DNA of 64,000 nt from Trueperaceae bacterium (lineage in GTDB: Bacteria; Deinococcota; Deinococci; Deinococcales; Trueperaceae). The stretch lies in the NCBI GenBank assembly GCA_965215565.1, contig CBDCDZ010000004.1, forward strand, positions 1,184,001 through 1,248,000, read 5' to 3'. Below the pieces are notes generated by a model. It had not been told where the DNA came from. It did no database searches and was given only the letters and a program-made list of their open reading frames with translations. Made by a program: the position numbers and the translations under genes. Below, in pieces: positions 26,213 to 32,295 of this stretch; positions within the stretch are counted from its first letter, which is position 1; every line of letters starts with the position of its first letter.

Positions 26213-26557
26213 CTAAAGCTGTTTTACATCCTTCGCCAACTTCTGCGCTACCAGCGCGTTCAAGCTGATACCCGCTTGCGCCGCTTCGAGGGCTAAAGCG
26301 CGGTGAATACGCTTGTCAATTCGCACATTGAATTGACCGCTATAATTCTTCTTAGCAGGCGCTACGGGGATAGGCTCTCCTGCCTCTTTGTAGCTTTCTT
26401 TGACCAGTGCCCAAGCTGTTCTCAGCTCCTCTACAGCCTCGTTCGGTGCGTCGGCAAAAGCTGAGACGTGCGGCAGCTCAACGAAGTGCGCGAGCCACTC
26501 CCCGTCCTCGTCGAGGAACACATTGACCGTAAATCCGTCAAACTCTTGTGCTGTCAC
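26213..26557 (-). CDS. hicB: HicB antitoxin
   Basis: YSGQFNVRI...HR.LA..A...GISLN RHH tail; overlaps the hicA stop. Confidence 0.88.
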   Translation of the reverse strand: MTAQEFDGFTVNVFLDEDGEWLAHFVELPHVSAFADAPNEAVEELRTAWALVKESYKEAGEPIPVAPAKKNYSGQFNVRIDKRIHRALALEAAQAGISLNALVAQKLAKDVKQL

Positions 26558-26793
26558 GCGCTCTCCTCCTCATAAATCGTGAGAAACTGTCCAACTTGAT
26601 ACCCTTTAGCTTTGCCGCTCTTCCCTTCCTGTATTGGTAAACGTGCGCCCCTAGTAGAAATCCATATCCGGTGACTCCCGCGTTGCCTGTCGAGCGTCCA
26701 GTTACAGCGCTGTAACAACGTCTCGAATTCGCTAAACCGCAACCCTCCAGGGTTACGCCTAGCCTTCTCTAACAGCTTATCCGTTCGTGTCAT
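26554..26793 (-). CDS. hicA: HicA toxin (mRNA interferase)
   Basis: LRFSEF..LL, RGSH and K.YQV motifs; leaderless TATAGT box. Confidence 0.85.
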   Translation of the reverse strand: MTRTDKLLEKARRNPGGLRFSEFETLLQRCNWTLDRQRGSHRIWISTRGARLPIQEGKSGKAKGYQVGQFLTIYEEESA

Positions 26794-26876
26794 ACTGTGA
26801 CTATATCTGGTTACACATGTGTAACCCTGAAAGCGTTGATGTTACCTCAGATGAGATTACTTTAAGGGAGAAGCTC

Positions 26877-27815
26877 TTGAAAGTTTTTATCAGTTGGTCT
26901 GGTTCACCTAGCAAAGAGGTTGCTGAGCTTTTAAGCGAGAACCTTCCTTCAATTATCAATGTGATTGAGCCGTTCATGTCTCAGCGTGATATAGGGTCAG
27001 GTGAACAGTGGAGCCGGAGAATTTCGGCAGAACTCGATGAAACAAGTTTTGGTATCTTTTGTCTGACGCGCGATAATATTGACGCACCTTGGCTTCATTT
27101 TGAAGCTGGTGCAGTTTCAAAGCTAGGTGGTAGGGTAGCAGGTCTCCTTATTGGCGACCTCTCCCCAACTGACATCAACAATCCTTTGACTCAGTTTCAG
27201 CATCGGTATTTTAATGAGAGGGATTTTGAGAAGTTGATTTTAGACATCAACCAAACAACCGATTTCAAGGACGAGATTATCCGCAAGAGTTTACGTGCTC
27301 AATGGGGAGAAGTAGAGCAGCAGTACAAAGATATTTTGAAGACAAAGTACACTAATTCACCTGTGAAGCGAAGGTCGGTGGACGATTTTATGAAAGAGGT
27401 ATTGCTGAGAATAAGAAATGTAGAGAAAGAGGTCTCAAGTATTAGTAAACCTGTTAGCAAACTGGCTAGTAAACCATCTAACGTACACACCCGTATAAAA
27501 AAGTCTTGGTTTGATAGCCATCCCACTTTCGATCCCGAAAAGACCACATATGGTTTCACAGTTTACTACTCGAATCTTTCTTCTACCGACGCAGAAGCAT
27601 TTGCCAAGGTAGCTACTAAAACGTTCAGGGATATGTCTGTGCAAATTTTTGCTCATTCCATCAACCATTACCAAGCTGGTCGCTCTTTCCATGTCACCTG
27701 TCAGGTAGATAACGGTAGTGGTAAGAGCGTTGCCTCCATTGAGCAGTTATTGAGAAATGCTCTTGAGAACGCAGCTCTACAGTACTTTGATGAGTCTGGC
27801 TACTACGTAGATTAG
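26877..27815 (+). CDS. TIR domain protein with unknown C-terminal region (AT-rich)
   Basis: KVFISWSG...DIGSGEQW...WLHFEAGA; probable TTG start after GGGAG (ORF open from 26787). Confidence 0.8.
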   Translation: MKVFISWSGSPSKEVAELLSENLPSIINVIEPFMSQRDIGSGEQWSRRISAELDETSFGIFCLTRDNIDAPWLHFEAGAVSKLGGRVAGLLIGDLSPTDINNPLTQFQHRYFNERDFEKLILDINQTTDFKDEIIRKSLRAQWGEVEQQYKDILKTKYTNSPVKRRSVDDFMKEVLLRIRNVEKEVSSISKPVSKLASKPSNVHTRIKKSWFDSHPTFDPEKTTYGFTVYYSNLSSTDAEAFAKVATKTFRDMSVQIFAHSINHYQAGRSFHVTCQVDNGSGKSVASIEQLLRNALENAALQYFDESGYYVD

Positions 27816-28102: not shown

Positions 28103-30133
28103 CTACAATACGCTCTGCAACGCTTCTAAAGTCTCCGTTAAGCTCTGCGACTCGAGGGGCGAAAGTTTGCCCTCACCGAAGACGCGCAGACACGCTTGGG
28201 CGACGCGCGGGTCAAAATGGCGTCCGCTTCCGCGTGCAATCTCCGCGAGCGTCGCCTCGACGGACCAGGCCTCTTTATAGGGTCTTTCGTGCGTCAGCGC
28301 GTCCAACACGTCAGCGACGGCGACGATGCGCGCCGCTTCGGGGATGGCGTCACCGGCGAGCCCGTAGGGGTAGCCTTGCCCGTCGTAGTGTTCATGATGG
28401 GAGAGCGCGATCTCTTCGGCGACTTGCAAGAGGCGCGAGCGCCCGTCCGACAAAATACGCGCGCCGATCACCGTGTGGTGGCGGATGAGTTCGAACTCGC
28501 CCTGCGTGAGCTTGTCGGGCTTGAGCAAGACCGCGTCACTGATGCCGATCTTGCCGACGTCGTGAAGTCTTGCGGCGGTGTAGAGGAGTTTGACCTCGTC
28601 GTCGGGGTAGCCGAGCGCGTAGGCGATGGCGGCGGCGTTTCTACCGACGCGCCGCGTGTGCTCACCCGTGATGTCGTCACGGTATTCGGCGGCCAGCGCT
28701 AGGCGCGTGACTACCTCGAGCTGCGACTCCTCGAGTTCCAGGGTACGTTCCGCGACGGCGGCTTCGGCTTCGCGCCGCGCTCTCTGCGCGACTTGGGTGC
28801 GCAAACGGTACGTTTCGGCTTCGTGGCGAGCGCGTTCGACCTCGAACTGCACAGTGAGCTGGCGCGTCTTCTCCTCGCTCTCGCGGTTGAAAAGCGCTCT
28901 TTCTAGGCGGTGGAATTCGCGCTGATGAGAGAGAGCGTTCGCCAAATCGCCGTTCGCCTCGTAAGCCCTAGCGAGAAGTTCGTGCGCCTCGTAAACGGAT
29001 TTCAGGCGCTCTAAGTTCTCAGCGAGCGAGAGCCCTTCGGCTAAAGCGCGCGCGGCGCGTTCGGGAAGATTCAGCTCGAGGTAGTCCCGCCCCAAGTTGA
29101 GTAGGGCGTCCATCTCGCCTCCTCTATCGCCGACATCCTTGGCGATAGAGAGCGCTGACCTATGCGTTTTAAGCGCGTTCTCGAAATGTCCTAGTGCAAC
29201 TTGTACCTGTCCCAGACCGTCTAAGTTGTCGATTTCGTAAGCCCGGTTGTTGACGCAACGAGAAAGCTCCAGCGCCTCCTCGAAGAGCGTTTGCGCGTCG
29301 CGCCACTGCTTTCTGTCGTAATGGAGGTTGGCTAAGTTGTTGAGCGCCGCCGCCTCCATGATGGCATCCCCCGCCGCGCGGCTGATCTTCCGCGCACGCT
29401 GCAGAAAGGTGAGCGCCTGCTCGTCTTGTCCCATGACCTGATAGAGGTTGCCTAGGTTGATGAGGTTGGCAATCGCACTTCGCGAATTTGGCGCGACGCT
29501 TTGGAGCAAGTCGTACGCTCCCTTCAAAGACACCAGAGCGCTCGGATAGTTGCCGAGGAAGCATTCTATCTGTCCGCTATAGTCGAGGATATTCGCTTGA
29601 CGTTCACGTAAACCGTGGCGTTGGGCGATGGGGAGCGCATCTTTGAGATACTCGAGCGCGCGCCCATACTCTCCCTGCTCAGCCACTACACCCGCTAAGA
29701 GGTTAAGGGCTTCGGCTTCTAAAGGGTTGCCCACTTTCCGACTCAGTACTAAAGCTTTAGCTAACCAGTCGGAGGCGTCGCCGAACTGAGCGAGGTCACG
29801 GTAGACGCGCCCTAGCATAAGAGCGCACTCGAGCGCACTTGGGGAGCTTTGCGCGGCTTGCGCGTTCTCAGCCCTCAGCAGCGCATAAGCTTCAAGGAGT
29901 GAACGCAGCGCTTCGGCTGAATACCCCTTTTGATAGTACGCTTTGCCGATGAGTAGCGAGGCTTCCGCTGCCACTATGAGGTTCGCCGATACACCGAGTA
30001 CGCCGTGAGCAAGCTCTAACGCCCGCGCTGGGTCCTGTTCAAGCACCGCCGCCGCGTCAGCGAGCGACGCTTCGACTTCAGCTCCGGGCGCAGATAGAGA
30101 GTTGGCAGCAGGGTTGTGACTTAGCGCGGACAT
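28103..30133 (-). CDS. TPR-repeat / HD-GYP cyclic-dinucleotide phosphodiesterase
   Basis: Multiple TPRs (ALNNLA.LHY.., LDGLG.V); [17 protein letters not shown] and VADVLDAL motifs; no signal peptide or TM. Confidence 0.92.
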
Positions 30134-30164
30134 AGTTTCTCCTCCTTAACTAATAAGGTGTTTT

Positions 30165-31837
30165 TTACTCTTTGCTCATTGGGGCGAGCGGTCCGCCAAG
30201 GCTCTCGCCAGAGACCACTTCGAAGTTCTTCTCAACCGATCCAGGACCAACGGGTTTCTTGCAGTCAGTACGCAACTTGCCGCGCTTTTTATCGTCCTCA
30301 TAAAGGGTCGATCTCTTTGCCCATCGTGTCATCACCGTTCTTACCCGTAAAAGAGAAGGTCTTACCAGGGTCCACTTCCCCCTCGAAGAGAACCGCCTTG
30401 CCGTCCTTTTGCACCACGCGGATGTCCTCGTCATCCGAGCCCGTGTAGCGCAGCGTCAGGCGCGTTACGCCTCCTTCACAGGAAAGAACTGCTTTATCTT
30501 TCTTACCTTTGCCCTTCTTCTGCTTGACGACCTCTTCCAAAAAGACAGCGAGGTCTAGACGCCCCTCGCCTAACTGACCGACGTAGTCTGCGTTGCCTTC
30601 CTCTGCGTAGAGGTTAAAGCTTTGCGCCTTGAGCGCTTCGGCGAGTTCTTTGCGCTTGACATTGAGTTTTTCACCGAGCGCGAGCGCCAGCGCACCAGAC
30701 GCCATCGGCGCAGCCATCGAGGTGCCGCTCCAAGCCGCTAGGCGCTCCCCCGGAGCCGGGCTGTAGACATTCTCACCGGGCGCGGAAAGTTCGACCTCAG
30801 CGCGGTACGTCGCGAAGTCGGACTTGACGTCCGCGCTGTCCACGCTCGTTACGCTGAGCCGCCCCGGAGCCGTTTTTGCCCGCGTCGCCGAGCGCGCCGG
30901 ATAGGACACGGCCGTGTCGCCCGTGTTGCCCGTAGAGGCGACGACGAGCACGCCTTTTTTCACCGCCGTATCAATGACCTCTTCGATCGCCTTGACCTCT
31001 TCGTTGCTCCCCAAACTCAAGTTGATCACGTCCGCTTTCATCTTCACCGCCCAGTGAATCGCCGAGGCGACGTCGGTCAGGTTGCCGCCGCCACCAGGTC
31101 CAAGCACGCGGATAGGGAGAATCGTGGCGCGCGGCGCGACTTGGCGGACGATGCCCGCAACGTTAGTGCCGTGTCCGTAGCCTCCCTCGCCCAAAACGCC
31201 CTCTTCTTGGGGTGTGGCGTCGCCATCATAGAAGTCCCACCACTCTTTCTCCGGGGCTAGCGCCTCTACGAGAGCGGGGTGCTCCAGATCAATCCCCGTG
31301 TCAATAACGGCAACTTTGACACCCTGGCCCAAGTTGCTCGCTACTGCGTGCCCTTCTTCTAAGCGGACTTGTCGCCACAAAGAGGTGTTCTCGGGCATCC
31401 AGGCGTACTCACCACCCGCCCATACATTAGAGCGACCTCCCGCCCACACGTTCGAACGTCCGCCAGCCCATACGTTAGAGCGACCTCCTGCCCACACGTT
31501 GGAGCGCCCTTCCATCTGCGCCCGCTCACCGCCGAGTAAAAAAATGTCGTCGTTGGCCTCGAGTAATCCCTCTACTTTTTCGTTCACCTCCTATAACCGC
31601 AAACGTCCCCGGCTCCCATACGAGCACCTTGCCGTTATATTCCGCTTCAACACTGGCGAGCGTATCCTCAGCGCTGAGGGCGACGGTAAGCGCGTACTCG
31701 GGATCGGGGACATCAGCGCCGAGTGGACGGGCGTCCTCACTTGGAGAGAGACTGCACCCGCCGAGCGAGAGCGCAAGCGTAGTCGCTAAGAGCACGCGCC
31801 TTGTATAGGAAGTTGACAAGATGAGATGGTTGAACAT
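30165..31837 (-). CDS. Subtilisin-like S8 lipoprotein protease with (GRSNVWAG)4 pro-region; two apparent single-base frameshifts (about 31588 and about 30305)
   Basis: Lipobox LGGC in ORF 31526-31837; triad IDTG / HGT / GTSMA in ORF 30298-31587; C-terminal domain continues in ORF 30165-30434. Confidence 0.8.
31414..31509 (-). repeat. Four coding tandem copies of GRSNVWAG (24-nt unit, synonymously diverged)
   Basis: Unit 1 GGG CGC TCC AAC GTG TGG GCA GGA; unit 2 GGT CGC TCT AAC GTA TGG GCT GGC; unit 3 GGA CGT TCG AAC GTG TGG GCG GGA; unit 4 GGT CGC TCT AAT GTA TGG GCG GGT. Confidence 0.95.
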
Positions 31838-31956
31838 AGAGCGCTCCTAGAGGCAGAGGCTTGGTTTCAAGCTATCCCCCTACCCGATACTTCTGCCCTA
31901 TTACCCTAGAGCACACCCTCTTACAAAAAACTCACACATCAGCCGTGTGGTTCAAA

Positions 31957-32066
31957 AAAGGTTGCCGTGCGCTAAGTTTGTGAACTTTTTTATTTTTGCG
32001 AGAGTGAAAAAAGCAACCTTTTGCCCCTTTTTTGGCAACCCTTTGGCAACCTTTGCTCTTTAAGAT
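31957..32066. promoter_or_regulatory. Repeated (G)GCAACC(T/C)TT boxes and putative -10 (TAAGAT) in the divergent promoter region
   Basis: Copies at 31957-31966 (reverse), 32013, 32034 and 32045; TAAGAT at 32061. Confidence 0.45.
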
Positions 32067-32111
32067 AAGAACAAGCCAGGGAAGAAATCCCGGCACGAAA
32101 AGGAGAGAATT

Positions 32112-32240
32112 ATGAAAAAGAAGATGCTCGTTGCCCTCACCGTCAGCCTTTTAAGCCTCGGATTCAGCACCAGCGTCGCGGGAAAGTACCAGGGCTCGTC
32201 ACCCACGACCGACGGTAGAAGCAACGTCTGGGCTGGCTAA
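32112..32240 (+). CDS. Small secreted peptide precursor (42 aa) ending in GRSNVWAG, absent from the ORF track
   Basis: AGGAG RBS; MKKKMLVALTVSLLSLGFSTSVA|GKYQGSSPTTDGRSNVWAG*; followed by a terminator. Confidence 0.9.
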   Translation: MKKKMLVALTVSLLSLGFSTSVAGKYQGSSPTTDGRSNVWAG

Positions 32241-32267
32241 CCCATACAGCATATTTATACGGTAAAC

Positions 32268-32295
32268 AAAGAGCGACCTTAGTAGGTCGCTCTTT
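32268..32295. terminator. Intrinsic (bidirectional) terminator
   Basis: aaagagcgacct-tagt-aggtcgctcttt perfect hairpin. Confidence 0.8.

Follow-up and report, generated by a model that had tools for sequence, protein, structure and literature searches.

A window of 64,000 nucleotides from the genome of a Trueperaceae bacterium (contig CBDCDZ010000004.1, positions 1,184,001 to 1,248,000) contains, at positions 28103-32295, a small gene for a secreted-type peptide, a divergent gene for an S8 subtilase and a gene for a tetratricopeptide repeat (TPR) protein with an HD-GYP domain. The octapeptide GRSNVWAG ends the small peptide and is repeated four times in the protease. It is likely an undescribed cell-to-cell signal, which would control cyclic di-GMP (c-di-GMP) through the sensor enzyme of the neighbouring gene. 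From the sequence comparisons presented below, it is probable that the protease zymogen is the main precursor from which the octapeptide repeat is cut as a pheromone, that the small gene adds a second, accessory source of it, and that the TPR-HD-GYP protein is the receptor. The genome of the window (4.49 Mb) is denoted G000, and its congeners G001 and G002. The features of the locus are as follows.

32112-32240, plus strand: gene of a pro-peptide of 42 amino acid residues (predicted signal peptide, spacer, Asp, octapeptide at 32214-32237, stop)
32268-32295, plus strand: 12-bp hairpin, likely a terminator by its folding energy, possibly bidirectional
31960-32055, no strand assigned: divergent intergenic element of GCAACC hexamers with an 11/22-nt period and one inverted copy, putative regulator site
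31526-31837, minus strand: N-terminal part of the protease, with lipoprotein signal (lipobox Cys at about 31754) and pro-domain, interrupted by a frame break at about 31589
31414-31509, minus strand: four tandem octapeptide copies in the linker that joins pro-domain and catalytic domain, upstream of the catalytic Asp
30298-31587, minus strand: S8 subtilase, repeat linker and catalytic domain (Asp at about 31300, His 31171, Ser 30718; Pfam Peptidase_S8, 1.8e-44)
30165-30309, minus strand: DUF7467-like extension that forms the C-terminal tail of the protease, not in frame in this assembly
28103-30133, minus strand: putative receptor/phosphodiesterase of 676 residues, predicted to be cytoplasmic, with TPRs (about nine helix pairs), coiled linker and HD-GYP domain (Pfam)

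The octapeptide in the peptide gene and in the protease

The open reading frame (ORF) of 42 residues has the features given in a preliminary description of this DNA: its own ribosome-binding site (AGGAG, 6 nt 5' of the ATG) and a C-terminal end formed by Asp and the octapeptide. The Sec signal claimed there is a prediction from the Lys-rich and then hydrophobic N-terminus, as judged from the sequence alone. No Pfam or NCBIfam family matches the small peptide. The four exact repeats lie, as described earlier, just upstream of the catalytic domain of the protease. In all six frames of G000 the complete octapeptide is found at only five sites, which are the small ORF and the four repeats. The chance expectation of such a match is about 2e-6 per 10 kb, and the earlier statement that it is unlikely to be accidental holds.

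It is important to compare the codons of the two genes. The Arg and Ser residues are encoded by AGA and AGC in the peptide gene but by CGN and TCN in the protease repeats; therefore the match is kept at the protein level and is no DNA copy. Between G000 and G001, 10 of the 42 codons of the small gene differ synonymously and 6 are replaced. The same two residues have changed in the peptide and in each of the four repeats, along different mutational paths. The ribosome-binding site and the stop of the ORF are conserved. These comparisons indicate that the identity between the two genes is real and under selection at the protein level. One could still see in the repeats no more than a flexible linker, and in the small ORF a duplicate without function or an accidental reading frame, since the linker is Gly-rich and disordered and the protease is broken in G000. 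This explanation is extremely improbable and largely refuted by the different codon boxes, the concerted replacements, the conserved ribosome-binding site and stop and a family of about 20 proteins.

The hairpin at 32268-32295 has a folding energy of -21.7 kcal/mol (z -3.97), which favours the terminator of the preliminary description; a scan for consensus terminators did not call it. It is kept in G001, absent from G002, and could also serve the convergent gene.

Pairing of the protease with a TPR gene

A profile of the pro-domain, the repeats and the start of the catalytic domain was searched in 363 genomes of the order Deinococcales. The protease clade was found in 162 of these, with 438 matches, 150 of them listed; related proteins occur in Trueperaceae, Deinococcus and other Deinococcales. 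A search with the full protease alignment was unspecific: it relied on generic S8 patterns, and most of its at least 160 loci were ordinary subtilases. The regions analysed were 150 fetched loci (best-scoring matches and peptide hits) together with the window, in which a sequence pattern recovered 144 proteases.

A TPR gene lies within 1.2 kb of 124 of the 144 proteases, and in 114 of these cases it is directly downstream on the same strand. By motif, 102 of the 124 TPR genes have an HD-GYP output (41 also GGDEF), 7 have GGDEF only, 1 has CHAT only and 14 are other. The conserved TPR-HD-GYP or GGDEF neighbours, which the preliminary description had named as a sign of a functional link, are thus present at most loci. 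Among relatives the output domain is swapped for GGDEF, EAL or CHAT while the TPR part is retained.

At least two identical repeat units are present in 118 proteases, with two to five copies each, and the last copy is followed by Gly in 113 of 116. The consensus of the unit is G-x-x-x-(A/I/V/M/L)-W-(A/S)-G, so position 5 is hydrophobic and position 7 is small. The 93 kinds of unit among the 118 proteases fit specificity codes, as expected. The preliminary description had seen protease autoprocessing as a source of extra signal. The protease is retained here as a source with the emphasis reversed: its repeats are more likely the main one, because the protease clade occurs in 162 of the 363 genomes and the separate peptide gene was found in 19.

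G000 also encodes three paralogues of the repeat protease, whose units differ (C4:941726, 3638815 and 4208229). They lie beside TPR-CHAT or TPR-GGDEF genes, and no cognate small ORF was detected for these three. A related Trp repeat was also seen in S8 proteases of Acidobacteriota (L037-L039, L042-L044, L046, L048, L049, L117, L125), mostly directly downstream of genes for about 940 residues, eight with a CHAT motif, and upstream of a conserved gene for 700-790 residues. Atlas matches for the pro-region scored below 0.9 and are leads only.

Matching of peptide and repeat, genome by genome

The tail of the small peptide was compared with the protease repeat of the same genome in 17 genomes, leaving out G111, which has no clade protease, and G232. 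Seven pairs are exact and ten, these seven included, agree at 7 or more of 8 positions. Over the variable positions 54 of 68 residues agree, while shuffled pairings gave a mean of 16.5 and a maximum of 39 in 100,000 shuffles. When each of 10 clades, delimited by eye, is represented by a single genome, 30-33 of 40 positions agree, a result reached by at worst 1 in 2000 shuffles. The co-variation of peptide and repeat, which the preliminary description had proposed to look for, is therefore observed. In G069, G108 and G113 the best-matching of several proteases was taken, in G066 and G095 one of two proteases was seen, and G192 was found via its match. An unselected scan of 145 loci gave 9 with a small ORF that has a ribosome-binding site and matches at 6 or more of 8 positions, against 0.9 for foreign units.

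Five peptide genes are unlinked to the protease, at about 96 and 105 kb from it or on other contigs, and still match the protease of their own genome: exactly in G095, G108, G066 and G096, and at 7 of 8 in G113, whose protease match was looked up after its peptide was found.

The small genes could also be interference or cheating signals, whose variant units jam or trigger the receptors of neighbours. This would account for the 10 of 17 pairs that are inexact, for the peptides of G115 and G120, which fit the protease unit of another genome better than their own, and for the patchy and decaying distribution of the genes (G156; G000 C4:4392705). It is very unlikely in view of the seven exact pairs, G000 included, four of which are unlinked.

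Stand-alone peptide genes

Peptide genes were searched by iterated profiles over the 363 genomes and by scans of the fetched loci. About 20 candidates were scored per genome, and the number of genomes with a peptide gene is a floor of at least 19. The unit is C-terminal in 16 of these, follows directly after the predicted signal-peptidase site in two (G096 and G192), and in G232 is part of a micro-ORF of 15 residues without signal peptide. As the unit abuts the predicted cleavage site in G096 and G192, its N-terminal Gly is fixed. In all 13 aligned small peptides the unit is preceded by Asp and the N-terminus is basic and then hydrophobic, as far as the sequence allows it to be judged. Protein searches gave 21 and 17 matches, with a few unrelated ones near the cut-off. 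A search for micro-ORFs of 6-15 residues in 145 loci gave one convincing case, that of G232, and one doubtful case.

In G170 a peptide gene with a Trp-containing tail immediately precedes a TPR-EAL gene, there is no protease within 14 kb, and the tail mismatches the single clade protease of that genome. G156 has a decayed peptide gene at the syntenic site. Two pro-peptides, L416 (G111) and P0028, carry two non-identical units, resembling duplicated Phr pheromones. A signal-peptide ORF without Trp at L290:7115-7240 (G165) lies directly upstream of a long helical-looking ORF and possibly belongs to another peptide class.

The protease and its frame breaks

The protease has the features of family S8A, namely the Asp-His-Ser triad, the oxyanion Asn and the subtilisin fold. 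The triad and the lipobox Cys are invariant in 23 relatives. The AlphaFold2 model of the intact G001 protease has a confident pro-domain and catalytic domain, while the repeat linker is predicted to be disordered (predicted local distance difference test, pLDDT, about 30). By Foldseek the model aligns over 420 columns, the pro-domain included, with unprocessed pro-subtilisin E (3whi). The model places the repeats at the pro-domain junction, where the tail of the pro-peptide would meet the active site.

The preliminary description treated the protease as a single ORF and overlooked two breaks. One extra base at about 31589 shifts the frame between the lipoprotein N-terminus (31526-31837) and the ORF of the catalytic domain (30298-31587), and a second at about 30309 severs the C-terminal tail. 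The gap of 31 nt reported between the protease and the TPR gene holds only if the second break is read through. The frames are open in G001 (561 residues) and G002 (530 residues), and internal stops are absent from all clade matches listed, 150 of 438. In public contigs from runs X1 and X2, which are one sample, the extra base at 30306/30309 is absent from all of the depth (7.56/7.56 in X1, 31/31 in X2), while that at 31589 is absent from only part of it (4.9/9.9 in X1; 28.9/38.8 in X2). Judging from these depths only, the break at 30309 could be an error or a change peculiar to the G000 strain, and the one at 31589 may be a genuine segregating allele. Were this first frameshift genuine, the strain would have lost the protease-borne source and would depend on the small gene or on its neighbours. 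As the relatives are in frame, programmed frameshifting was discarded as an explanation of the first break. A general assembly-error rate as the full explanation was also rejected: 28 of 29 other compared ORFs are unbroken, and the remaining one has an event at the end of the alignment.

The putative receptor

The soluble TPR and HD-GYP protein of the preliminary description is encoded at 28103-30133 (Pfam TPR_12 1.7e-32, HD_5 4.8e-31), and its gene is unbroken in frame relative to G001. The HD-GYP domain aligns with PDB 4mcw (E 7.7e-48), and the HD, HHE and GYP motifs are all present. No family with a helix-turn-helix (HTH) matches the protein, and its output is the C-terminal HD-GYP domain. 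The TPR part contains a conserved Asn ladder (N144/N266). Tyr185, where the family has Asn, was rejected as a sign of decay, being common to G001, G002 and G282. The receptor profile matches RapH (3q15) and RapJ (4gyo) with E of about 1e-15; the TPRs of eukaryotic GPSM2/PINS score far higher.

Since import of the octapeptide is a prediction, the signal might instead be read outside the cytoplasm by another, unlinked receptor, with the TPR-HD-GYP protein as a co-regulated downstream effector. This is quite unlikely: by sequence the protein has no membrane segment, it has the Asn ladder, and it is the TPR part that is kept when the outputs are swapped.

Downstream of the receptor gene, at window positions 26213-27815, HicB-family and TIR-domain genes are present; G001 and G002 have a different gene for 1,240 residues there, which marks a variable slot.

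Which partner tracks the unit

Co-variation between unit and partners was tested in 86 non-redundant pairs on four position sets, with overall distances regressed out and kinship partly controlled. The groove positions, after the TPR literature, and the subsite positions of the protease are presumed ones. The 54 predicted groove positions track the unit with a partial r of 0.108, and 8 of 1000 matched random column sets were as high; for a groove set of 45 positions the number was 26 of 1000. Outer TPR positions fail to track the unit (447 of 1000). A column-by-column scan was discarded as noise, as HD-GYP and protease columns scored level with TPR columns.

Several observations weigh against a pheromone read by the TPR protein. 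The groove co-variation is small and refers to presumed groove positions, the protease subsites track the unit about as strongly (r 0.117, 28 of 1000), and just 2 of the 39 receptor differences between G000 and G001 are within the 54 groove positions, which is no enrichment. Twenty of the 144 proteases have no TPR gene within 1.2 kb, several of them at contig ends. Seven of the 17 peptide-repeat pairs agree at only 5-6 of 8 positions, and the G069 peptide fails to match its adjacent protease. The single contig of G111 has two peptide genes but lacks both a clade protease and a close TPR receptor; it encodes 11 other S8 proteases and only a divergent TPR-like HD-GYP protein. The protease frame is broken in this assembly. 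Expression, processing and binding of the octapeptide are predictions from sequence. Taken together, the groove and subsite co-variation fits a peptide cut by the protease and read by the TPR protein, and is proof of neither.

The subsite result would also agree with a small peptide that acts on the protease in trans by mimicking the pro-region linker, be it as substrate-like inhibitor, as decoy or as folding aid, while the TPR protein senses something else. The repeats are located where the pro-peptide tail would meet the active site, and the hydrophobic position 5 and small position 7 of the unit are compatible with the P4 and P2 preferences of subtilisin, which we take to be hydrophobic and small, respectively. 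However, such regulation leaves the tight protease-TPR linkage, the groove co-variation and the 93 units unexplained. Peptide genes also occur beside a TPR gene without protease (G170) and in a protease-less assembly (G111), and a linear octapeptide would presumably be a weak inhibitor. This explanation, which the preliminary description had offered as its inhibitor or chaperone alternative, is weakened and is retained as unlikely.

Promoter element and further peptide genes

The GCAACC element before the peptide gene is kept in G001 and G002; three further genomes of the family gave no copy of it. It occurs twice more in G000, before another secreted-type peptide gene and before a decayed one, and the genes that it precedes may share a regulator. 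A scan for sigma-70 promoters gave nothing relevant.

The first of these two further genes, at C4:982404-982532 (minus strand), is a signal-peptide ORF of 42 residues with an Asp-Gly-led duplicated unit of 6 residues. It is positioned between a cupin-HD-GYP gene and an ORF of 120 residues, and its G002 orthologue (L479:1289-1414) has a different tail. The third copy of the element, at C4:4392705-4392970, precedes the decayed peptide-like gene, and a transposase-like ORF follows where the contig ends. At C4:3312936-3313330 two secreted-type peptide genes lie in tandem and encode similar tails. They are downstream of a gene for 324 residues, the N-terminus of whose product resembles the cupin-HD-GYP protein near 982404. 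Small signal-peptide ORFs at C4:2808488, 1578082 and 1422816 adjoin proteins of 810-980 residues and are possibly further peptide-receptor pairs. Among these proteins, TPR-profile matches are at C4:2804284 and 1423036, and the ORF at 2808488 also follows a lipoprotein of 466 residues.

Comparison with known systems

In RRNPPA systems a small Sec-type pro-peptide has a C-terminal or internal pheromone of 5-10 residues, sometimes duplicated; extracellular proteases mature it, Opp takes it up again and a cytoplasmic TPR receptor reads it (PMC11343458, available part). The criteria in the available part of PMC10075063 are a Sec-secreted pro-peptide of 10-100 residues, a TPR receptor of 250-500 residues with an N-terminal DNA- or protein-binding effector, and genes that are direct neighbours. 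The present system resembles RRNPPA systems (Rap-Phr, NprR-NprX, PlcR-PapR, AimR-AimP) in a pro-peptide of 42 residues and a receptor with TPRs. However, the host belongs to Deinococcota and not to Bacillota, the receptor has 676 residues, and the TPRs are N-terminal with a C-terminal enzyme as output. RRNPPA effectors are N-terminal HTH domains or helix bundles. Here the pheromone would be embedded in a protease zymogen, and the gene for a pro-peptide may be absent and, if present, is often unlinked. In G000 the protease gene lies between the peptide and receptor genes, which are direct neighbours in G120 and G170 and unlinked in five genomes. Since receptor length, gene adjacency and effector position all differ from the RRNPPA criteria, the system is kept outside this family.

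The protease resembles pro-subtilisin E, BPN' and thermitase (S8A, I9-type pro-domain) in its pro-domain, catalytic fold and intact triad. It differs in the lipoprotein anchor, in the Trp repeat of two to five copies between pro-domain and enzyme, and in Ser and Thr/Ser at what we take to be the positions of A152 and G166 in subtilisin, suggesting a smaller S1 pocket. The continuous signal-pro-mature frame that is the rule in subtilases is intact in G001 and G002 but has two breaks in G000. The HD-GYP domain has the metal-binding and GYP motifs of known phosphodiesterases (PDB 4mcw, 4r8z, 5z7c) but, unlike these, is joined to a TPR array as sensor; c-di-GMP or cGAMP are candidate substrates.

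In its available text a review of Deinococcus names only acyl-homoserine lactone (AHL) and autoinducer-2 (AI-2) quorum sensing, and the terms HD-GYP, tetratricopeptide and c-di-GMP do not occur there (PMC6300522). Surveys of RRNPP systems cover Firmicutes in their available parts (PMC9765709, PMC10075063), and the arrangement is not described in those of PMC4007540 and PMC6300522. The literature, as represented by listings and the beginnings of abstracts, gave no description, in agreement with the preliminary one; the supplements of PMC10075063 and PMC4007540 could list such peptides. The sequences apparently define a real and selected variant of peptide signalling with an undescribed arrangement, whose signalling function is predicted.

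Proposed mechanism and significance

In the proposed mechanism the lipoprotein zymogen would be exported and would process itself, and the Gly-bounded repeats would be cut into two to five free octapeptides. The product of the small gene would leave the cytoplasm by Sec, and either a cut after Asp or signal peptidase itself would reduce it to the octapeptide. The octapeptide would re-enter through an Opp/Dpp-type importer; six SBP_bac_5 binding proteins of peptide importers are encoded in G000. It would then bind in the Asn-lined TPR groove and switch the HD-GYP domain (GGDEF, EAL or CHAT in relatives), so that c-di-GMP may change in either direction.

On balance the evidence leans slightly towards a wider proposal: an undescribed, phylum-wide peptide language outside Bacillota, in which an exported protease would itself serve as the pheromone precursor, with several copies of the unit, and the signal would report maturation of the protease. 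It would comprise at least 93 dialects with TPR sensors wired to enzymes that make or break c-di-GMP, and the stand-alone genes would be secondary gains that track the dialect even when unlinked.

To our knowledge, the input signals of c-di-GMP enzymes are mostly unknown. The stand-alone gene pins down the sequence of the mature signal. If the proposal is true, Deinococcota would have a peptide signalling system in which a protease zymogen doubles as pheromone precursor, and exact ligand sequences would be available for more than 100 orphan TPR-HD-GYP/GGDEF enzymes.

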